From Candidatus Magasanikiibacteriota bacterium (GTDB lineage Bacteria; Patescibacteriota; Patescibacteriia; Magasanikbacterales; 2-02-FULL-50-9b): a DNA stretch of 64,000 nt. The notes beneath the pieces were generated by a model. That model saw only the letters and a list, made by a program, of their open reading frames with translations, did not search any database and was not told the DNA's origin. The stretch covers positions 3,702-67,701 of the forward strand of contig JAHFHU010000002.1 of the NCBI GenBank assembly GCA_023246755.1, written 5' to 3'. Below, piece after piece: positions 4,400-47,068 of this stretch. Every line of letters begins with the position of its first letter. The first letter of the stretch is position 1. Position numbers and translations under genes: made by a program.

Positions 4400-6661
4400 T
4401 TAGAATCTTCCGCGTCCGCCGCCGCCACCTCCATGTGGTCGCCCCCCGCCCCGGCCTCCGCGATCTCCTCCACGTCCGCCGCCATGCCCCGAACGATCAT
4501 CGCGCTCTCGGGGCGCACGCTCCTGAAAATCAGCTGGCGGCGCAGTTAATCGCTTCATCGACAACGAAATACGGCCCTGCTCATCAATTTCTTTGACAAT
4601 CACCTTAACGTGATCACCGATCTTGAACAGATCATGCGGCGACTCAACGCGCTGCCATGACATTTCCGAAACATGCACCATACCATCCTGTTTTGGCAAC
4701 ACTTCAACGAAAATTCCGTAATCTTCAACGCGCGTGACCGGCACATCTTCAAAAATTTCGCCCGACTCAACGACACGCACAATATTTTTAATCCAATCAA
4801 CCGCCTTCTCGAGCTGCGCACCCGGTGGCGCTGTAACTGAGACTTGACCCGTTTGTTCGATATCAATTTTCACACCACAGGTATCAATAATTTCGTTGAT
4901 CACCTTTCCGCCCGGACCGATCACCTCGCGAATCTTATCAACTGGAATCATGAATGTCACAATCTTTGGCGCGTATGGAGACAAATCAGCACGCGGCTCT
5001 GGCAAACAGGCATGCATGACATCGAGAATTTGCATACGTGCCTCGCGTGCCTGCGCAAACGTGTCACGAATAATATCTGCGGTGATGCCGTCAGTCTTTG
5101 TATCCATCTGGATTGCCGTAATGCCCGCTCGAGTACCTGCAATTTTGAAATCCATGCCGCCCGGACCGTCTTCTAAGTCCTGTAGATCAGTCAAAACAAC
5201 ATATTTACCCGCTTTATTTGATGCGAGACCCATTGCCATACCTGCAACAGGTGCAGTGAGCGGAACGCCTGCGTCCATCAAAGCCAATGTTGAGCCACAG
5301 GTCGACGCCATAGACGATGAACCGTTCGACGACATCACTTCCGACACAACACGAATGGTGTAGGGAAATGTTTCTTTCGGTGGAAGCACCGGAAGCAAAG
5401 CCTTTTCCGCGAGCGCGCCATGTCCAATTTCACGGCGACCCGGGCCACGATTTGGGCCAGTCTCACCGACCGAATATGCAGGAAAATTATAGTGATGCAT
5501 GTAACGCTTTTTGCTTTCACCCTCAATACCCTGCAAAATTTGCTCGTCACCGGGCGAGCCAAGCGTCACAATTGAAAGTACGTGCGTTTCGCCCCGCTGA
5601 AAAAATCCAGTTCCGTGTGTACGTGGTAGTACAGCGACTTCTGAAACGAGCTGACGAATTTCTTTGAGCCCGCGACCGTCAACGCGACGCCCATGCTCAA
5701 TGACTTCTTCAGTAATAAATTCCTCAACAATATGTTTCAATTTATTGAACGCAATCTTGCGACGATCTTTTGAAATATTTTCGCGCGTGAAATACGCGTC
5801 GAGCAATTCTTTCATCTTGCCAAACGACTCCATACGTTCCGCTTTCGAACGCTTGGGCGCATCGTAAAAAATTTCACCCGCATGTTTTGCGATGAACGCG
5901 TGCGCAAGTTCAAGAATTGCAACATCAGTAATTTCACCTTCTGCAACTTCCGCCGCGCCCGAAGTCGCCGCGCGTTTTTCTTTTCCAACTGCCGCGCGCA
6001 CTTCTTCGATCAATTTCATCGGCTCCTTCATGTGTTTGCGCGCAAAGTCCATTGCTGCAACAAACACTTCTTCTGGAACTTGATTTGCCGCTGCTTCAAT
6101 TTGTGTAATTTTTTCTGTTGTACCGGTCACGAGCAAATCCAAAACAGATTTATTCAACGCTTCAGCCGTCGGATTAATCACCCACTCACCTTCGATCTGA
6201 CCAACGCGGATACCCGCAACCGGCCCGTTCCATGGAACGTCTGAAATCGTGAGCGCGCAACTCGCCGCGATCACGCACAACGCCTCGTGATCATTTTCAT
6301 TGTCATACGACAAAACCGTTGTTACAACCTGCACCTCGTTACGCATCGCATCGTTGAAGAGCGGACGAATGCCGCGATCAACCATGCGTCCGGTCAAAAT
6401 CGCTTCATCAGACGGCCGACCTTCGCGCTTAATAAAACGCGAACCTTTAATAATACCGGCCGCGTACAATTTTTCATCAAAATCAACCGAGAGCGGAAAA
6501 TAATCGATCCCGTCGCGCGTTCGATCGCTCATCGTTGCGGTTCCCATCACGACCGTGTCGCCGTAGCGAACGGTGCATGAACCACCTGCCTGCGGAGCAA
6601 ACTTTCCTACTTCAATCGTGAGGGTTCGGCCGCCCCACTCGGTGCTAAATTTTTGTGACAT
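4400..6661 (-). CDS. pnp: polyribonucleotide nucleotidyltransferase (PNPase) with C-terminal RGG-repeat tail
   Basis: Full-length PNPase architecture (two RNase PH domains, KH, S1). Conserved blocks such as FFQRGETHVLSIVTLGS and GSSSMASTCG are present. Extra tail GHGGGRGGDRGGRGGGRPHGGGGGGRGRF. Confidence 0.95.
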   Translation of the reverse strand: MSQKFSTEWGGRTLTIEVGKFAPQAGGSCTVRYGDTVVMGTATMSDRTRDGIDYFPLSVDFDEKLYAAGIIKGSRFIKREGRPSDEAILTGRMVDRGIRPLFNDAMRNEVQVVTTVLSYDNENDHEALCVIAASCALTISDVPWNGPVAGIRVGQIEGEWVINPTAEALNKSVLDLLVTGTTEKITQIEAAANQVPEEVFVAAMDFARKHMKEPMKLIEEVRAAVGKEKRAATSGAAEVAEGEITDVAILELAHAFIAKHAGEIFYDAPKRSKAERMESFGKMKELLDAYFTRENISKDRRKIAFNKLKHIVEEFITEEVIEHGRRVDGRGLKEIRQLVSEVAVLPRTHGTGFFQRGETHVLSIVTLGSPGDEQILQGIEGESKKRYMHHYNFPAYSVGETGPNRGPGRREIGHGALAEKALLPVLPPKETFPYTIRVVSEVMSSNGSSSMASTCGSTLALMDAGVPLTAPVAGMAMGLASNKAGKYVVLTDLQDLEDGPGGMDFKIAGTRAGITAIQMDTKTDGITADIIRDTFAQAREARMQILDVMHACLPEPRADLSPYAPKIVTFMIPVDKIREVIGPGGKVINEIIDTCGVKIDIEQTGQVSVTAPPGAQLEKAVDWIKNIVRVVESGEIFEDVPVTRVEDYGIFVEVLPKQDGMVHVSEMSWQRVESPHDLFKIGDHVKVIVKEIDEQGRISLSMKRLTAPPADFQERAPRERDDRSGHGGGRGGDRGGRGGGRPHGGGGGGRGRF

Positions 6662-6706: not shown

Positions 6707-7402
6707 TTACATGATGGTGCGCTTATTGCGCCGTTGATTTTTTTTATTGTCGACGTTCGACGAAGCAACCCGTTCTTCTGGAATCTGCTGTGTATCCCCC
6801 ACAATTTCTTCCTCCGTATCAACTGCTGGCTGATGCGTCGAGGGACGATGTTGCGCAGCACCGCCTCCGTTCTGTTGAATCAAATACTGGTCCGCGTGTT
6901 CCGCAAGATCAATAAAATCATCGACAGTCTCGATAAGTCGACTTGATGAAGTATGACGAAACGCCATCACTTCAACGCGACATCCTTTGTGCTGAAGATA
7001 CTCAACCAACGGAATGTAATCTCCATCACCCGATACGATCACAATCACGTCAACTTTGTCGCTCATGCGAATCGCATCAACCGTAATCCCCACATCCCAA
7101 TCCGCTTTCTTAACGCCGCTCGAAAAAACTTGCAAGTCGCGCTCTTTAAGCTCAATCCCTTGCAAACGCAGCGCATCAAGAAACCGAACTTCGTGCTGCT
7201 GTGGTGTTTCAACAACATACGCCGTCGCACGGATCAAATTTCGATCACGAATCGCGCCTTTCACCACGTTGATGAAATTAACTTTTGCGCCAAACAAATT
7301 TTTAGCGCTGTAATACATGTTCTGCACGTCAATAAAAATACCGACGCGTTGTGCAGTGTAATTAATCTGCACCGGCATGTCCTGTTTTTCTGTTTTTTTC
7401 AT
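6707..7402 (-). CDS. NYN/LabA-like (DUF88) domain protein
   Basis: GIFIDVQN...VIVSGDGDY matches the NYN ribonuclease-like fold family. It is inserted between rpsO and pnp with 12-nt and 45-nt gaps (same operon). Confidence 0.7.
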   Translation of the reverse strand: MKKTEKQDMPVQINYTAQRVGIFIDVQNMYYSAKNLFGAKVNFINVVKGAIRDRNLIRATAYVVETPQQHEVRFLDALRLQGIELKERDLQVFSSGVKKADWDVGITVDAIRMSDKVDVIVIVSGDGDYIPLVEYLQHKGCRVEVMAFRHTSSSRLIETVDDFIDLAEHADQYLIQQNGGGAAQHRPSTHQPAVDTEEEIVGDTQQIPEERVASSNVDNKKNQRRNKRTIM

Positions 7403-7414
7403 GTGAAAAAATGG

Positions 7415-7744
7415 TTACGCCACTTCTTCCACAATGTCGTCTACGTTGTCAACTTTATCGAGATCAGCAAACTGTTTTGCGGCCTTCAAATTAAGTGCCT
7501 TTACAAGTTTTTCAAAGCTTTGCGCATTCTCACGCTGGAGAAAGCGAAGCAAACGGCGACGCTCACCGACTTTGCGGAGTAAACCGCGGCGCGACGAGTG
7601 GTCTTTGCGATGTGACTTTAAATGGCCGATGAGTTCATCGATTTCTGCTGTCAAAATAGCGACCTGCACCTCAGGCGACCCGGTGTCACCCGCGTGCGTG
7701 CGGAATTTGGCAATGATTTTTTGTTTCTTATTTTTATCTAACAT
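7415..7744 (-). CDS. rpsO: 30S ribosomal protein S15 with acidic C-terminal extension
   Basis: Strong S15 similarity (…GDTGSPEVQVAILTAEIDELIGHLKSHRKDHSSRRGLL…). The ~20-aa extension is acidic. SD GAGG precedes the ATG. Confidence 0.9.
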   Translation of the reverse strand: MLDKNKKQKIIAKFRTHAGDTGSPEVQVAILTAEIDELIGHLKSHRKDHSSRRGLLRKVGERRRLLRFLQRENAQSFEKLVKALNLKAAKQFADLDKVDNVDDIVEEVA

Positions 7745-7837
7745 ATACCTCGCATGCTAATTTCCGCGGCGGGCCAACGCGAGTGTCAGCAGCTGCGGGC
7801 CGAATTTTACCGTTCGGCGAGAATTAAATTGGTTTCG

Positions 7838-7866
7838 ACTGTATCACGCAGCAACAGTTTTGTCAA
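7838..7866 (-). promoter_or_regulatory. putative proximal rpsO promoter (TTGACA-17-TACAGT)
   Basis: Minus strand: TTGACA at 7866..7861, 17-nt spacer, TACAGT at 7843..7838. It gives a ~85-nt hairpin-containing leader before rpsO. Confidence 0.4.
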
Positions 7867-8139
7867 ATAAAAACAACCCTTGCAAAGCTTACCGCATCTT
7901 TCTTAAAAAACTGTCGCAGGCGAGCGACGAAAGATGGAAGTGTTCAGCCACACGTAGGGGCGGGAGAACAAAGCTTGATACAAGGGTTGGAGGCCTGAAT
8001 TTGTGCGTACTCGTTTCTGCCACGAGACCGCCTACTGCGTCAACGGCTCACCGGGGTGTGAGCCGCTGGAAATAGTCGGGAGTAGCTGCAACTCTGGGGA
8101 AGTCGCAGATCACATAATTCAGCTCTGTAGCATTCAGTA
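7866..8139 (-). ncRNA. candidate ~270-nt structured sRNA (family unassigned) between the THUMP-methylase gene and rpsO
   Basis: Minus strand: consensus promoter TTGACA (8174..8169)-17-TATGCT (8151..8146). No ORF. Nested helices: CAACCCTTG/CAAGGGTTG plus AAGCTT/AAGCTT closing helix, CATCTTTC/GAAAGATG, GTCGC/GCGAC, CGGCTCA/TGAGCCG, CTCGT/ACGAG. It ends in the long helix followed by TTTTTATTT. Confidence 0.35.
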
Positions 8140-8145
8140 AGACGT

Positions 8146-8174
8146 AGCATACACGCTGCACAAGACTTTGTCAA
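8146..8174 (-). promoter_or_regulatory. sigma70-type promoter (TTGACA-17-TATGCT) firing toward rpsO
   Basis: Read from the sequence on the minus strand. The -35 overlaps the stop codon of the upstream methylase gene. Confidence 0.55.
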
Positions 8175-9355
8175 GCATTTCGAACCAACCGCACAATCTG
8201 TCGCCCCGTCCGCTGATCCGACCGCATATATAGAAGCGTCTTTTGTTCCGGCAAGAGCGGATCGATCGTAAAACCCGTTTCCGCGATAATCTCGTGGAGC
8301 GGCAACAACTCGCGCGGCGTAATTTGAAACGGCAATGAAAAAACGAGCCGACAATCCTGTTTCATCGCCGGCGCAAGCGCGCGCAGTGTTTTATTGTACA
8401 GCGCGACGAGCGCGTTTTTTTCCGACGCACTCAACGCCTCGCCTTTTTTGAGCGGACGCCCTAAAAATGGTTCGCTCGCGACAAAATCGATCGAAGCCGG
8501 CTTAAGATGTTGCGCCCGCGCCGACGCGTCGTGTTTAAAAACATCGAACTCGGTCGCATCAAGCCCGAACTGCGTGCGCGCCCACGCGAGCGAGGCTTTC
8601 GTGTCGTCAACCGCCTGTTTCAAAATATCAGACCCAAAAACGCGACCAAAATTCATCAGCGCCGCTTCGGTCAAAACAGTTCCCGAGCCACAAAACGGAT
8701 CGTACACCGCGCTTGAACTTGACTCCATGGCTCCCTGCGCGAGGTTGATCATGATTTTTGCAAGTTTCGGCGGCAACATCCCGCGCTTGGCGTCGCGTCC
8801 GGGCCGGCCATAATCGCGAAACGACCATTCATCAAATGGTTGAACTGCAACGGTCTGGCACGCAACAACATCCGAACTATCTTTAAGAATCGTCAGATCA
8901 ACGCCGTCCGGCGGCAGCAATTTTTCAAGTTGCACGCTTGCGCTCGACAAAATCGGGTCGCGGCTGATCACCGAGCGCACCGGTCGGTCGGTTTGCGCCT
9001 GAATTTCGCGCTTCAACGCGATGCCGAGCCCTTTGAATTCGGACGCGTTGACGATCGAAACACCGAATGTGACCTTGTTGCGCGCGGTGTTGGCACGAAT
9101 CACGTGGTCCGCGAGGTGCGCGACAAGCTCGTCGGGTTTGCGCGAGAGGCCTTCGACCACTTCAAGAATTTTGACCACGCCGCCAAGCTGCCCCATGAGC
9201 CACGCCGGCGATTCGCTGCATTCCACGACAAAAAATCGCTCGGCAAGCAAACGGCCGTGCGCCAAATTCGGAAACCGGCTGACCAATTCCGCCTGCGAAA
9301 GCGCCGGATGGGAGCCAAATTGAAAAACAAGTTTCATAAATGCAGCGTAGCGCAT
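8171..9355 (-). CDS. THUMP-domain-like RNA (guanine/adenine-N) methyltransferase, UPF0020/Trm11/RlmL-like
   Basis: VYDPFCGSGTVLTEAA (DPFCGSGT) and downstream SEPF…GRPL (NPPY-like) motifs of N-methyltransferases, preceded by an RNA-binding-type N-terminal domain. Confidence 0.6.
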   Translation of the reverse strand: MRYAAFMKLVFQFGSHPALSQAELVSRFPNLAHGRLLAERFFVVECSESPAWLMGQLGGVVKILEVVEGLSRKPDELVAHLADHVIRANTARNKVTFGVSIVNASEFKGLGIALKREIQAQTDRPVRSVISRDPILSSASVQLEKLLPPDGVDLTILKDSSDVVACQTVAVQPFDEWSFRDYGRPGRDAKRGMLPPKLAKIMINLAQGAMESSSSAVYDPFCGSGTVLTEAALMNFGRVFGSDILKQAVDDTKASLAWARTQFGLDATEFDVFKHDASARAQHLKPASIDFVASEPFLGRPLKKGEALSASEKNALVALYNKTLRALAPAMKQDCRLVFSLPFQITPRELLPLHEIIAETGFTIDPLLPEQKTLLYMRSDQRTGRQIVRLVRNA

Positions 9356-10240: not shown

Positions 10241-10264
10241 AACCACGGCTCAAACCCATCCCAA

Positions 10265-10307
10265 CCCACCGCATAGAGAATTGTCTCGTGCGGTGGGCTG
10301 TTTTTTT
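10265..10307. terminator. intrinsic terminator (bidirectional: A-run/T-run flanks)
   Basis: CCCACCGCA…TGCGGTGGG 9-bp stem followed by CTGTTTTTTT. Confidence 0.6.
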
Positions 10308-10527
10308 AAAAAAACAGTTCGGCACTCACGGGTGTACCCCTCCCTGGTACACCAGCAAACGCCGAACTTGGTTCAAGTTACCATTTATAAACACAGTAAG
10401 TCAAACGATATTGTCAAAAATATGTCTATACTACCGTATACAGTGTTGATAAACCTGTGGAAAAGTAGTGCATATCTGTGGAAAACTCAATGTTTTTCGA
10501 AGTTTTTAAAAATTGTACACGCTTTCG

Positions 10528-10556
10528 TTGACAAAATCGTTTTTTTATGGTATAGT
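10528..10556 (+). promoter_or_regulatory. consensus sigma70 promoter TTGACA-17-TATAGT with no ORF downstream
   Basis: cgTTGACAaaatcgtttttttatggTATAGTatc. Predicted TSS ~10563. Confidence 0.55.
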
Positions 10557-10562
10557 ATCTTC

Positions 10563-11020
10563 GTGCTCATGAAAGCTTGATCGAGTTACGGTCCGAGAGA
10601 CGCTGTAACTCTCGCTCTCATCACACACCCTATAACGACTTCCTCATCGGAAGATCAAAATAGTTCTTTTGCACGAGTTCCACCACATAGTTCTTTGCCC
10701 GCGCATTCGTCCATCGTTCACATTTCAAATCGTTCCACTTTTCTTTCAACGAGAAAGGCGTGAATACTGGTAGAACGGTCTTTCGAGACAGTTCCCACTC
10801 ACGATCCGGTGTTACCTCGCAAAATTATGAGGTCAATTAACACCACGCAGAAGGATTAGATGCGAACAACAACAACACAACCCGCAAGATCGATATCCTC
10901 GAGGTCGTCTCACGATGTACCTCAAGTAGTGTCCGTCTTGCACAAGGCTCGTGGCTCACCGATTAACTACATTGTTTCGGGTGATTGCCCGAGCCTTTGC
11001 TATTTTATACAGGTTTTTTA
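10563..11020 (+). ncRNA. candidate large ORF-less transcript (unassigned ncRNA or long leader)
   Basis: ~460 nt downstream of a consensus promoter with no ORF >60 aa. Local hairpins (GAGTTAC…GTAACTC, CTTCC-TCATC-GGAAG). It ends in a weak T-rich hairpin before the dksA promoter. Confidence 0.25.
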
Positions 11021-11038
11021 TTTTCGCCGCCGCTGGTG

Positions 11039-11067
11039 TTGACATGTGCCGCCGGTAAATCTATACT
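11039..11067 (+). promoter_or_regulatory. promoter TTGACA-17-TATACT for the dksA-like/lspA unit
   Basis: gtTTGACAtgtgccgccggtaaatcTATACTgc. Confidence 0.55.
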
Positions 11068-11098
11068 GCAGTAATATTCGTCATTTGTTGCGCGCATT

Positions 11099-32575: not shown

Positions 32576-33691
32576 ATGAAATTCACGTGTACTAAAGAAA
32601 ATTTTTTACAAGGAATTCAAGCAGTCTCTTCGATTACCGGAAAGCAAGTTCACTTACCGATACTCAACAACATTTTATTATTAGCAGAACCAACAGGTCT
32701 CAAAGCGATCGGAACAAATCTGGAACTTTCTATCGTTGCAACAATTCGTGGTAAGGTTGAGATTGCCGGAACCTTTACTGTTCCTGCTAAGATGCTCGTT
32801 GAATATATTTCGCTGCTTCCGAATGAAGCGCATATCGATTGTGAATTAGATGGCGTTGAGTTGATTTTGAAATCAGGTCGTCAGCGTACGAAAATGAAGG
32901 GCGCGCCTGCGACGGATTTCCCCGCTGTGCCGCCGGTTGAAAAAAACAATGAACTTGTTTTTCCCGCGGATCGTTTAAAGCGCGCGCTTCAACGTGTACT
33001 CATGTCGGTTTCGCACAGTGAAGTTCGACCAGAGCTGCAAGGTGTTCTGCTTTTTTCAGAAAATACGGATCAGTTGCGTGCGACGCTTGCTTCAACCGAT
33101 AGCTACCGTCTTTCGGAAGTGCACGTTGAATTACTCAATCAATCGAGTGTCGCGGTGCGCGTTATTATTCCGCAAAAAGCTGCACAGGAAATCCACAGAC
33201 TTCTCCCCAACTCAAATGAACCGACCGCTCTCGTGCTCGGCGAGGGTCAGATTTCATGTGTGATTGGCGACGTTCATCTTGTTTCGCGACTGATCGATGG
33301 GACTTATCCCGATTATCGACAGATTATCCCCAAGACATGGAATACTGAATTGAAAGCGCCTGTTGAAGAAACGCTCAAGGCGATTAAAGCCGCCTCACTT
33401 TTTGCAACACAGGGTGTGAGCGCGGTTTCGCTCGAGCTCAAACCAGCTTCGGAAATTCTCAACATCACATCCGCCTCAACGCAGGCTGGCGAACACTCGG
33501 CTGACATTTCGGTTGAAGGCGTCGGGGTTGATAATAAAGTTATTTTGAACCATCGTTTTTTGGTTGATGGGCTTTTGTCGGTCGACGATGAGCGGGTAAT
33601 TTTAAAAGTGGTGAATAGTGAGTCGCCGTGTTTGCTGCAACCGGAAAAAACAGATGATTATTTATATATCATCATGCCGATTCGCCAATAA
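32576..33691 (+). CDS. dnaN: DNA polymerase III subunit beta (sliding clamp)
   Basis: Three-domain clamp pattern. Immediately downstream of dnaA. Confidence 0.9.
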   Translation: MKFTCTKENFLQGIQAVSSITGKQVHLPILNNILLLAEPTGLKAIGTNLELSIVATIRGKVEIAGTFTVPAKMLVEYISLLPNEAHIDCELDGVELILKSGRQRTKMKGAPATDFPAVPPVEKNNELVFPADRLKRALQRVLMSVSHSEVRPELQGVLLFSENTDQLRATLASTDSYRLSEVHVELLNQSSVAVRVIIPQKAAQEIHRLLPNSNEPTALVLGEGQISCVIGDVHLVSRLIDGTYPDYRQIIPKTWNTELKAPVEETLKAIKAASLFATQGVSAVSLELKPASEILNITSASTQAGEHSADISVEGVGVDNKVILNHRFLVDGLLSVDDERVILKVVNSESPCLLQPEKTDDYLYIIMPIRQ

Positions 33692-33701
33692 TTTACAATT
33701 A

Positions 33702-33750
33702 AAAAACGCACCATCTTTGTTCGAATACAAAATTGGTGCGCTTTTTATTT
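33702..33750. terminator. bidirectional intrinsic terminator between convergent dnaN and the 3D-domain gene
   Basis: AAAAAAC-GCACCA…TGGTGC-GCTTTTTATTTT. Confidence 0.6.
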
Positions 33751-45703: not shown

Positions 45704-45964
45704 ATGCCAAATTTGGCTCAAGCAAAAAAAGCACTTCGTAAATCGAAAAAAGCGTTTATTCGCAATGAGGCGATTCGCGATGGTGTTCGTAAATTAAAAA
45801 AAGCCGCTCGTGTCGCGGTTGACGGGAAAGATAAGTCAGGCGCGGCAAAAGCAGCGCACGAATTACAAGTCGCTGTCGATAAGGCAGCAAAGCGCGGAAT
45901 TCTTCATAAGAATAAAGCGGCTCGTCTCAAATCACGTTTGGCAAAAAAGATTCGTTCACTCTAA
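45704..45964 (+). CDS. rpsT: 30S ribosomal protein S20
   Basis: MPNLAQAKKALRKSKK…RLKSRLAKKIRSL, a typical S20. Confidence 0.9.
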   Translation: MPNLAQAKKALRKSKKAFIRNEAIRDGVRKLKKAARVAVDGKDKSGAAKAAHELQVAVDKAAKRGILHKNKAARLKSRLAKKIRSL

Positions 45965-45980
45965 ACAGTGAAATAAAAAA

Positions 45981-46008
45981 TCTCCGGTGATAAGCCGGAG
46001 ATTTTTTT
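45981..46008. terminator. bidirectional intrinsic terminator between rpsT and convergent rmuC
   Basis: AAATAAAAAA-TCTCCGG-tgataa-CCGGAGA-TTTTTTT. Confidence 0.7.
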
Positions 46009-47068
46009 ATTCTTCTGATTGACCTGTCGGTAATTCAGCGAGTTCAATTTGCGCAACTTTTTCAAATTTAGAATCAAATTTTTCGAGACGTTTGCGCGAA
46101 TCATCAAATGCGCGTGCGGCATTGGTCAGGTGTTTTCCAACGAGACCATAATCGCCATTGAATCGCTCGAGATCACCTTTGAGACGCGAAAGATTTTGCA
46201 TCATTTCGCGCGCGCTCGATTCAATTTGCATCCCGCGAAGTCCGAGTAAAATTGTTTGCAGATAAACATAAAAACTGTTCGGCGAAACAGGAATTACGTT
46301 CCGACTATGCGCATAATGCACCAAATCATTCTCCTCGACCCCCTTCACAATTGTTTCGTAGTAAACATTTTCGGCAGGAATATACATGAGTGCAATATTG
46401 AGCGTGCCCTCGTCAGGTAAAATATATTGCTTTGCAATTTTATCAATGTGCTTTTTTACATCGCTCACAAACATTTTTTTGTGTACATCTTTTTCCTCGT
46501 CGGGAGCGGCCAGCATTTTCTGAAAATTTTCGAGTGGAAATTTTGAATCAACAGGTACGAGCATGTTATCGCGCAACTTCACAACCGCATCAACAACCTC
46601 ACCAGATTGAAAACGATGTTGTTCTGTGTAATGTTCAGATGGTAAAATCTGCGCTAATAAATTTCCAAGAAAAAATTCACCAATAGTTCCACGCAATTTT
46701 GGCGATCGTAAAATTTCTTGTAACGACGCAATATCTTTTCCAACATCGTAGATCCGTTTGTTTGCTTCTTCGAGTTGTGCGAGTTTGTTGGTGACAATCG
46801 CGTACGACCGCGCAGCAACATCAAGCCGCTCCCCCATTGTTTGATTTGTGTGCTGCTGCGATTGCGTATTTTCCCGCAGCCGATCATTCATTTGTTTGGT
46901 GATCGCATTCAATTGTTGTAAAACAGTTTGTGTTGTATTCTGTAGCTGCCGCTCAAGATGCGCATCCCCACCTTGATTATTTTTGTGAAACCGATATAGT
47001 ATTGCAAGTGCGACACAGAGCGCGGCGCACAAAATGACGAATGCGATTGTAAGGATTGTTGTAAACAT
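46007..47068 (-). CDS. rmuC: DNA recombination protein RmuC
   Basis: N-terminal TM anchor, long coiled coil, and C-terminal RmuC nuclease-like domain pattern. Confidence 0.7.
   Translation of the reverse strand: MFTTILTIAFVILCAALCVALAILYRFHKNNQGGDAHLERQLQNTTQTVLQQLNAITKQMNDRLRENTQSQQHTNQTMGERLDVAARSYAIVTNKLAQLEEANKRIYDVGKDIASLQEILRSPKLRGTIGEFFLGNLLAQILPSEHYTEQHRFQSGEVVDAVVKLRDNMLVPVDSKFPLENFQKMLAAPDEEKDVHKKMFVSDVKKHIDKIAKQYILPDEGTLNIALMYIPAENVYYETIVKGVEENDLVHYAHSRNVIPVSPNSFYVYLQTILLGLRGMQIESSAREMMQNLSRLKGDLERFNGDYGLVGKHLTNAARAFDDSRKRLEKFDSKFEKVAQIELAELPTGQSEE

Follow-up and report, generated by a model that had tools for sequence, protein, structure and literature searches.

A candidate structured small RNA gene and a predicted S15 operator in the gap upstream of rpsO in a Magasanikbacteria genome

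Introduction

DapZ and MicL of the enterobacteria are small RNAs (sRNAs) embedded in the 3′ untranslated region (UTR) of an mRNA, with a promoter of their own at the end of the upstream gene and a terminator that they share with the mRNA. Here, we describe a comparable layout on the minus strand of a 64,000-nucleotide (nt) stretch of a Candidatus Magasanikiibacteriota genome (contig JAHFHU010000002.1; the whole stretch is referred to below as the window), where a structured unit in the gap upstream of rpsO, the gene for ribosomal protein S15, is a candidate sRNA gene. The unit resembles the DapZ and MicL type in a promoter lying over the end of the upstream coding sequence, a shared terminator, the absence of coding capacity and a length of a few hundred nt, but it has no homology to these sRNAs, and where they rely on a conserved single-stranded seed and Hfq, the unit keeps its structure rather than its sequence. 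To our knowledge, hardly any regulatory RNAs have been described from the Candidate Phyla Radiation (CPR) or Patescibacteria, and a literature search for structured RNAs in these bacteria found no paper; if expressed, the unit would be a rare lineage-specific structured sRNA in reduced CPR genomes, whose structure is maintained during near-neutral turnover of its sequence.

The same gap contains the 5′ leader of rpsO, for which the closest described systems are the mRNA operators of S15. In 16S rRNA, S15 recognizes a GU/GC motif, a secondary site, that is separated by about one helical turn from a junction; the S15 mRNA operator of E. coli mimics this motif, as other such operators apparently do (PMC4684408). 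The Shine-Dalgarno sequence usually lies within these operators (PMC4684408, PMC4137082), and the regulators of the Firmicutes (Geobacillus) and of other phyla are independent, phylum-specific structures that span it and resemble the rRNA site in part (Slinger et al.; PMC4137082, PMC4684408). The leader described here, a predicted operator, is like the E. coli S15 leader (RF00114) in being a short leader at rpsO with a hairpin loop able to pair with the ribosome-binding region and a GU/GC motif resembling the S15 site in helix 22 of 16S rRNA (PMC4684408), and unlike it in sequence, in helix lengths and in having an extra, variable hairpin P1. What it shares with the Firmicutes operators is a junction with a GU/GC motif at a distance of about one helical turn, yet it cannot be aligned to them; the Firmicutes leaders that were compared have an ACUCC-type element upstream of GGAGG, and in an Rfam search of these leaders no model detected them. 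The Magasanikbacteria leader would add to the S15 operators that mimic the GU/GC motif and have evolved independently, bearing on the convergent versus divergent origin of ribosomal-protein leaders. Neither element alters current views; what they chiefly offer is two concrete candidates that can be tested.

A structured unit between a methyltransferase gene and rpsO

Along the minus strand, the locus runs from a methyltransferase gene across a 426-nt gap into rpsO, a gene for an NYN-domain protein and pnp (coordinates of all features are given in Table 1). We hold with belief and doubt in about equal measure that the gap contains two distinct minus-strand elements, namely the upstream structured unit (8174 to ~7865) and the rpsO promoter with its leader (7866-7745), and the case is just as evenly balanced for the upstream unit being an sRNA gene of ~275 nt with its own sigma-70-type promoter, confined to a narrow sub-lineage of the Magasanikbacteria. 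The start of the unit, its end and its independence as a transcript are what we infer from the features described in this section.

A 286-nt stretch across the unit has a minimum free energy (MFE) of -102 kcal/mol, compared with -77.5±4.6 for 200 dinucleotide shuffles (z -5.28), and across runs the z-score of the unit tile lay between -5.3 and -6.2 on the sense strand and between -0.6 and -0.9 on the opposite strand. The minus strand of the window was scanned in 223 tiles of 286 nt, and once the strongest of them had been re-tested with more shuffles (60), the unit tile was the most extreme. The predicted fold comprises two domains joined by a single-stranded linker, which falls in an island, CAG(G/A)CCUC, conserved in the diverged copy of the unit in the relative L097 (see below). 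The 5′ domain is strand-specific (z -4.5 sense, 0.05 antisense), and the 3′ domain has z-scores of -6.3 sense and -4.0 antisense. The latter is closed by a perfect inverted repeat of 9 base pairs (bp), CAACCCTTG/CAAGGGTTG (7989-7981 / 7882-7874), together with an AAGCTT pair; in the MFE structure this 9+6-bp helix becomes one of 11+6 bp, which encloses two hairpins, one of them branched.

The candidate promoter of the unit lies across the end of the methyltransferase gene, the stop codon of which (TGA, 8173-8171) is inside the -35 hexamer, and would place the transcription start at ~8139. The promoter scan returned 5 promoter-like sites in 2 kb against 1.3 expected. At the equivalent site L097 has TTGACA-17-TATGAT, an 11/12 match, and the hexamers are kept at the exact 17-nt spacing despite a spacer in which only 7/17 positions are identical to the window. 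At the other end, the closing stem of the 3′ domain is followed directly by a U-tract, which overlaps the A/T-rich stretch upstream of the -35 hexamer of rpsO and has a counterpart, UUUUUUUAU, at the equivalent site in L097. Stem and tract were not called by the terminator scan, because the loop is 94 nt long. They are akin to an intrinsic terminator in consisting of a G+C-containing stem and a U-tract where one gene ends, ahead of the next promoter, and unlike one in that the stem closes a 94-nt branched insert rather than a loop of 3-8 nt. As no terminator was found between the methyltransferase gene and the unit, the methyltransferase mRNA must enter the unit and share its 3′ end.

Much of this had been pointed out in an earlier note on this DNA, made by a model from the letters and a list of open reading frames (ORFs). 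The promoter that it described, TTGACA-17-TATGCT overlapping the methyltransferase stop (8174-8146, minus strand), is present with 10/12 matches, as is the 9+6-bp interrupted helix around two further helices, which the MFE lengthens, and the T-run behind it (TTTTTATTT, 7873-7865); the ORF-free stretch that it put at ~270 nt measures about 275 nt.

Within those ~275 nt, ORFs reach at most 44 aa in the sense and 71 aa in the antisense direction, and none has a Pfam match. Between the window and L097, indels of 4, 16, 1, 2, 3, 1 and 7 nt leave no conserved frame, and mismatch rates by phase (0.43/0.43/0.53) have no marked 3-periodicity; there is accordingly no conserved ORF and no codon-like pattern of substitution, as is expected of an sRNA gene. 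A small protein starting from an ATG within the -10 hexamer (36 and 61 codons in the window and L097, respectively) was considered and rejected, the two versions being unalignable, separated by frameshifting indels and devoid of Pfam matches.

The unit likewise matches no RNA family in Rfam. With Rfam 15, whose families include riboswitches and ribosomal-protein leaders as well as RNase P, tmRNA, SRP and 6S RNA, the whole window at the gathering threshold gave only four tRNAs, positions 7350-8600 at E<=10 gave only chance matches of 12-16 bits, and the relatives L090 and L097 gave no matches. The earlier note had seen no signature of RNase P, tmRNA, SRP or 6S RNA by eye and had proposed such a covariance-model search, which leaves the unit without a family at either threshold.

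Conservation of structure in a diverged copy

The relatives compared around rpsO have an S15 that is 81-95% identical to that of the window. One sister clade (L096-98; S15 93% identical) carries a diverged copy of the unit, the body of which is homologous to that of the window (alignment z 10-12) and similar in length (267 versus 287 nt). As the two copies are ~52-54% identical and the 4-fold sites of the flanking genes 42%, the sequence of the unit appears to have diverged at close to the neutral rate. The L097 copy nonetheless folds with a z of -5.9 sense and -2.7 antisense, and the separately predicted MFE structures of the two copies have the same topology, with a closing helix and three arms in the 5′ domain and a stem and two arms in the 3′ domain.

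Pairing profiles, namely upstream and downstream pairing probabilities compared along a sequence-only MAFFT alignment, correlate between the two copies at 0.647, against -0.04±0.17 (maximum 0.33) under a circular-shift null. A more demanding null keeps identical columns fixed and permutes the variant bases of L097, either globally (200 simulations) or within ±20 columns (120 simulations). The observed L097 MFE of -99.3 compares with -76±5 in these simulations, the profile correlation with 0.28±0.17 and the in-register pair overlap of 20.5 with 7.2±4.7; no simulation, global (0/200) or local (0/120), matched the observed MFE, correlation or in-register pairs. On the antisense strand the signal is weaker, with a correlation of 0.45 that was reached in 8/120. 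The 5′ domain taken separately has an in-register overlap of 9.8 compared with 0.9±1.0 in the neutral simulations (0/120), driven by helix P3. In L097 this helix keeps nine pairs, with two double compensatory changes (G-C to A-U and C-G to U-A) and two single ones, and the closing stem P5 of the 3′ domain is kept with one compensatory change (C-G to U-A). Compensatory changes of the kind that the earlier note had suggested looking for are therefore present in this pairwise comparison of the window with L097.

Because substitutions have preserved the structure of a nearly neutral sequence, the unit is probably a real structured RNA, restricted to this lineage. Its transcription would start at its own promoter across the methyltransferase stop and run to the 11+6-bp stem and U-tract, and the RNA would fold into a 5′ domain around a four-helix junction and a 3′ domain around a three-helix junction, joined by a single-stranded CCUC. 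The stem and U-tract would in addition end the methyltransferase mRNA and keep read-through from reaching the rpsO promoter. From the retention of structure during almost neutral drift we infer that structure rather than seed pairing underlies its role, for example in binding protein or in the stability and termination of RNA.

The rpsO promoter and leader

Downstream of the unit, rpsO has a promoter of its own with an extended -10, the context of which (TTTGACAAAA) is kept together with the 17-nt spacing in close relatives. The earlier note had also recognized this second promoter (7866-7838), followed by a hairpin-containing leader of ~85 nt; the promoter is a 10/12 match (TTGACA-17-TACAGT) and the leader measures 87 nt. 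Apart from that of the window, 12 distinct leader sequences were recovered; ten of them retain this promoter and leader, with the core CTGAC(A/T)CTCGCGTYGG...GCGAG(G)NATATG.

In an alignment of 11 distinct leaders (the window and ten relatives), 96% of the cells of hairpin P2 and of the pseudoknot, formed by the P2 loop and the ribosome-binding region, can pair, which falls to 32-41% once the partners are slid by 1-3 columns. RNAalifold predicts P2 as well. A hairpin occurs at the position of P1 in all aligned leaders, but its sequence differs per lineage (GCCGAA/UUCGGC, CGAAC/GUUCG, CCGAG/CUCGG, CUACG/CGUAG, CCAGC/GCUGG and others), and it is weak (-1.9 kcal/mol) in the shorter leaders of L099 and L181. 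The GU/GC motif, a 5′-CU/5′-GG step at alignment columns U62-G75 and C61-G76, is invariant in all 11 leaders and lies 9-10 steps up P2 from the P1/P2 junction.

At the level of sequence, this element has features of an S15 operator, being a conserved, structured rpsO 5′ UTR that includes the ribosome-binding site and has a GU/GC motif and a junction. No Rfam S15 leader family, RF00114 included, matched within 7350-8600 at E<=10. Given the GU/GC motif near a junction, the predicted pairing to the Shine-Dalgarno sequence and the conservation, the 87-nt leader is a likelier site of S15 autoregulation than the upstream unit. S15 would bind P2 at the GU/GC motif, which is separated from the P1/P2 junction by about one helical turn, and once bound would stabilize the pairing of the CUCGC loop with GCGAG at the Shine-Dalgarno sequence, blocking the initiation of translation.

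Distribution of the unit and contents of the slot upstream of rpsO

Among close Magasanikbacteria, the content of the slot that adjoins the rpsO promoter on its upstream side is hypervariable, with the methyltransferase gene in either orientation. Beyond the diverged copies in L096-98, the unit is found, 100% identical, in a contig of the same species (L093). Elsewhere the slot is taken by a gene for a 127-aa cupredoxin, placed exactly between the methyltransferase gene and the rpsO promoter (L081-86), by a peptidase fragment and a 102-nt perfect-armed hairpin element (L087), by large BNR-repeat proteins (L099 and L181), by hexose-dehydratase genes (L180 and L182) or by other genes (L183 and L184), and in these relatives the conserved part is limited to the final 130-140 nt before rpsO, comprising promoter and leader. 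In the more distant relatives L001, L002, L004 and L036, the gap upstream of rpsO holds tRNAs or unrelated sequence. Judged by identity of the NYN and methyltransferase proteins, L090 lies outside a near-trichotomy of the window, L081 and L097. The unit would therefore either be an ancestral trait that was replaced in L081 or have arisen in a common ancestor of the window and L097.

S15 of a Magasanikbacteria RIFCSPHIGHO2 metagenome-assembled genome (MAG) shares 95% identity with the window protein, and a comparison of PNPase with GTDB species genomes gave CPR MAGs as best matches, with <=56% identity and no copy of the unit. An S15-based metagenome scan, its output dominated by the universal peptide DTGSPEVQ, returned no close relatives.

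In L090-92 an ORF-less structured stretch of 330 nt precedes the rpsO promoter (L090:2003-2362), with the methyltransferase gene on the other strand. It has a promoter of the same layout (TTGACA-17-TATATT, 11/12), ACTGAAT just past the -10 hexamer as in the window, and a stem followed by a U-run. Homology of this stretch to the window unit was considered and set aside, the alignment z of 1.2-1.5 not being significant, and the two are treated as analogous only. A bAvd gene (an accessory of diversity-generating retroelements) lies near it, at the start of the L090 locus.

Three other observations concern this slot. The hairpin element of L087 (2262-2363) adjoins the rpsO promoter, has perfect 19-bp terminal inverted repeats (CAAGACATGGGGATTTTGT / ACAAAATCCCCATGTCTTG) and z-scores of -9.4 and -7.2 on its two strands, and is akin to a miniature inverted-repeat transposable element (MITE). 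The 11.6-kb contig L094 ends in the rpsO promoter, a few bases off the end of the unit. At L184:601-700, upstream of the rpsO promoter, GGCTACAGCTTCTTTGGCCGTGATGG occurs twice in direct orientation, the copies being ~60 nt apart.

Alternative explanations

Several of the results weigh against an independent sRNA gene alongside an S15-binding leader. The unit is not present in most close relatives, which keep rpsO-NYN-pnp, and any function that it has must be dispensable. The covariation evidence comes from a pairwise comparison with one diverged orthologue lineage, and in the 3′ domain the 10.6 in-register pairs barely exceed the 10.1±1.7 of the simulations, such that the conserved sequence alone suffices to explain them. 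Single-sequence covariance models fared poorly on L097, that of the 5′ domain (R1) scoring 11 bits in the wrong place and 4.5 bits when forced, and that of the 3′ domain (R2) reaching 25 bits (E ~1e-4) via the outer stem and U-run only; at ~50% identity such models are too insensitive. The -35 hexamer overlaps a stop codon, and its conservation is for that reason in part coding constraint, while the branched insert within the terminal stem is atypical of an intrinsic terminator. As to the leader, L180 and L182 carry a different one, and the pseudoknot and GU/GC motif, being invariant, are neither supported nor refuted by covariation.

A serious rival, though in our judgement an unlikely one, is that the unit amounts to no more than a structured 3′ UTR and a terminator belonging to the methyltransferase mRNA, with promoter hexamers that are incidental, a fold that guards the 3′ end from 3′-5′ exonucleases and insulates the rpsO promoter, and no separate sRNA. 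The lack of a terminator between the methyltransferase stop and the unit, the position of the TGA within TTGACA and the closing stem and U-tract being the best-conserved parts all fit this explanation, and large hairpin elements adjoin the rpsO promoter elsewhere too, such as the 102-nt element of L087 with its 19-bp arms and z of -9.4. It does not account for a -10 hexamer kept at the exact 17-nt spacing beside a diverged spacer, nor for the structure-preserving evolution of the 5′ domain, since a terminator or insulator requires the 3′ stem only; moreover, the L090-92 unit has an 11/12 promoter and, with the methyltransferase gene on the opposite strand, cannot be the 3′ UTR of that gene.

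It is distinctly improbable, by comparison with the sRNA gene that we favour, that the unit is a functionless remnant of a gene lost from a hypervariable slot, for instance the cupredoxin gene of L081, with a fortuitous fold. The cupredoxin gene does occupy exactly the same slot in L081-86, the content of which differs in almost every relative, and the divergence from L097 is near-neutral. There is, in addition, a weak collinear tblastn match of the cupredoxin C-terminus to 8038-7928 on the minus strand (E 0.016 for a 550-nt search space, 1.7 for the window), and a frameshift-aware alignment scored 60 against 39.9±5.7 for shuffled sequences (0/100). A hidden Markov model of the cupredoxin family built from 114 sequences, in contrast, matched no frame of the window or L097 units, a 55%-identical cupredoxin homologue gave no signal, and L097 gave none with either cupredoxin protein. 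The copper-ligand residues are not kept, and there is no similarity to the L081 gene at the DNA level (z -1). Neutral decay would also have erased the fold, whereas both copies have a z below -5.8 and their substitutions keep it (0/200, 0/120), and the length has been kept (267 versus 287 nt) in a lineage generally known for small, streamlined genomes. The earlier note had named a decayed coding remnant as one outcome that would count against its proposal; the absence of a frame conserved with L097 and the empty search with the family model both speak against one.

We give still less credence to the whole 430 nt being a single rpsO leader transcribed from the upstream promoter, in which the stem and U-tract act as an attenuator responding to S15, PNPase or the NYN nuclease. 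The tandem arrangement of promoter, structured RNA, terminator-like stem and rpsO, its place beside an operon of RNA-binding and RNA-degrading proteins, and its unchanged strand and order in L097 and L090 would suit such a device. Against this, rpsO has its own strong promoter immediately after the U-tract, conserved in close relatives; most relatives without the unit still have leader and operon; and no alternative antiterminator pairing is evident in the MFE or centroid structures. Of the two readings put forward in the earlier note, the lineage-specific structured sRNA is partly supported by the fold, its conservation in L097 and the lack of a conserved frame, whereas the upstream 275 nt as a leader for autoregulation by S15 or PNPase is not supported, being missing in most relatives that keep rpsO-NYN-pnp.

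It is hardly credible that a small palindromic mobile element, akin to a MITE or a repetitive extragenic palindromic element, makes up the whole unit or its 3′ domain. The unit does have 9+6-bp terminal inverted repeats in a variable slot and a 3′ domain that folds on both strands (z -6.3 / -4.0), and the corresponding place in L087 is taken by the 102-nt element with perfect 19-bp repeats at its ends. But the unit occurs as a single copy within the 64-kb window, has no match in phages, plasmids or viral contigs (IMG/VR) and no visible target-site duplication, and its L097 copy is orthologous and diverged rather than near-identical, with a strand-specific 5′ domain.

A broader version of the sRNA proposal is speculative and, we think, improbable. 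The slot upstream of rpsO might host a fast-evolving family of promoter-to-terminator RNAs, of which the window/L097 and L090-92 types (sharing the promoter layout and an ACUGAAU 5′ end) would be diverged members, working with the S15-NYN-PNPase operon as, for example, a decoy or scaffold that titrates S15 or RNA-decay enzymes. Such a family, if real, would be a CPR-specific layer of control over RNA turnover.

Features of the locus and other observations in the window

Table 1. Features of the gap upstream of rpsO and of the adjoining genes (window coordinates; paired segments are given as 5′ arm / 3′ arm)
Feature	Position	Strand	Remarks
Candidate promoter of upstream unit	8146-8174	-	-35 TTGACA 8174-8169, 17-nt spacer, -10 TATGCT 8151-8146; 10/12 consensus matches
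Unit 5′ domain, closing helix and three arms	7995-8139	-	MFE and centroid
5′ domain closing helix CUGAAU/AUUCAG	8137-8132 / 8000-7995	-	Alternative CUGAAUU copy 8122-8116
5′ domain hairpin P2	8108-8086	-	MFE/centroid
5′ domain helix P3	8079-8071 / 8036-8028	-	Capped by hairpin P3a 8068-8041
5′ domain hairpin P4	8026-8010	-	MFE/centroid
Single-stranded linker GCCUC between unit domains	7990-7994	-	Unpaired in MFE and centroid
Unit 3′ domain	7874-7989	-	Outer stem around hairpin P6 (7969-7942) and branched hairpin P7 (7941-7891)
3′ domain closing stem P5, CAACCCUUGUA/UGCAAGGGUUG	7989-7979 / 7884-7874	-	Plus AAGCUU/AAGCUU 7976-7971 / 7890-7885
U-tract UUUUUAUUU (DNA TTTTTATTT)	7865-7873	-	Right after closing stem; terminator-like 3′ end; from sequence
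rpsO promoter	7838-7866	-	-35 TTGACA 7866-7861, 17-nt spacer, -10 TACAGT 7843-7838, extended -10 TG; 10/12
rpsO 5′ leader, 87 nt	7745-7831	-	Predicted start ~7831; P1, P2, loop pairing; ATG 7744-7742
Leader hairpin P1, GCCGAA/UUCGGC	7818-7813 / 7804-7799	-	
Leader hairpin P2	7798-7785 / 7778-7764	-	GU/GC motif: C-U 7789-7788 with G-G 7775-7774
Leader P2 loop CUCGC, complementary to GCGAG	7783-7779 / 7753-7749	-	GCGAG overlaps Shine-Dalgarno GAGG
Methyltransferase gene, UPF0020/RMKL type, 394 aa	8171-9355	-	Pfam PF01170, E 5e-11
rpsO (S15, 109 aa), first gene of rpsO-NYN-pnp	7415-7744	-	Pfam PF00312, E 1e-30
NYN-domain protein gene	6707-7402	-	Pfam PF01936
pnp (PNPase)	4400-6661	-	

The gene upstream of the unit had been labelled a THUMP methylase in the earlier note; the methyltransferase part of the label stands (UPF0020, PF01170), but no THUMP-domain match was found in Pfam. 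Downstream, the gene for the NYN-domain protein, a predicted nuclease, sits between rpsO and pnp, an order maintained across several CPR lineages (L001-L005, L036, L081-L096); some MAGs with this order are labelled 'uncultured Gammaproteobacteria', although their closest relatives are CPR. S15 has an acidic C-terminal extension of ~20 residues, DLDKVDNVDDIVEEVA (7415-7480, minus strand), which varies between relatives. PNPase ends in a glycine/arginine-rich low-complexity tail, RDDRSGHGGGRGGDRGGRGGGRPHGGGGGGRGRF (4400-4500, minus strand), and we know of no tail of this kind in the well-studied PNPases.

Two other tiles of the window are highly structured. The tile at 45761-46046, with a plus-strand z of -4.9, shares sequence with an 86-aa ORF and with the end of a convergent gene. 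The tile at 33463-33748 reaches a z of about -4 on either strand; lying where two convergent genes end, it probably serves as a terminator in both directions.

The plus strand carries another unit free of ORFs and running from promoter to terminator, at 10241-11098 (core 10304-11043). It consists of a promoter, TTGACAAA-17-TATAGT, at ~10530-10558, ~470 nt folding at a z of -4.28 and a T-run, followed by the dksA promoter. It has no Rfam match. An nhmmer comparison with L081 (E 1e-76) gave 69% identity across 740 nt, 3-periodicity is absent and the indels are non-triplet; on these sequence comparisons, the 10304-11043 element is a better conserved non-coding element than the unit upstream of rpsO.

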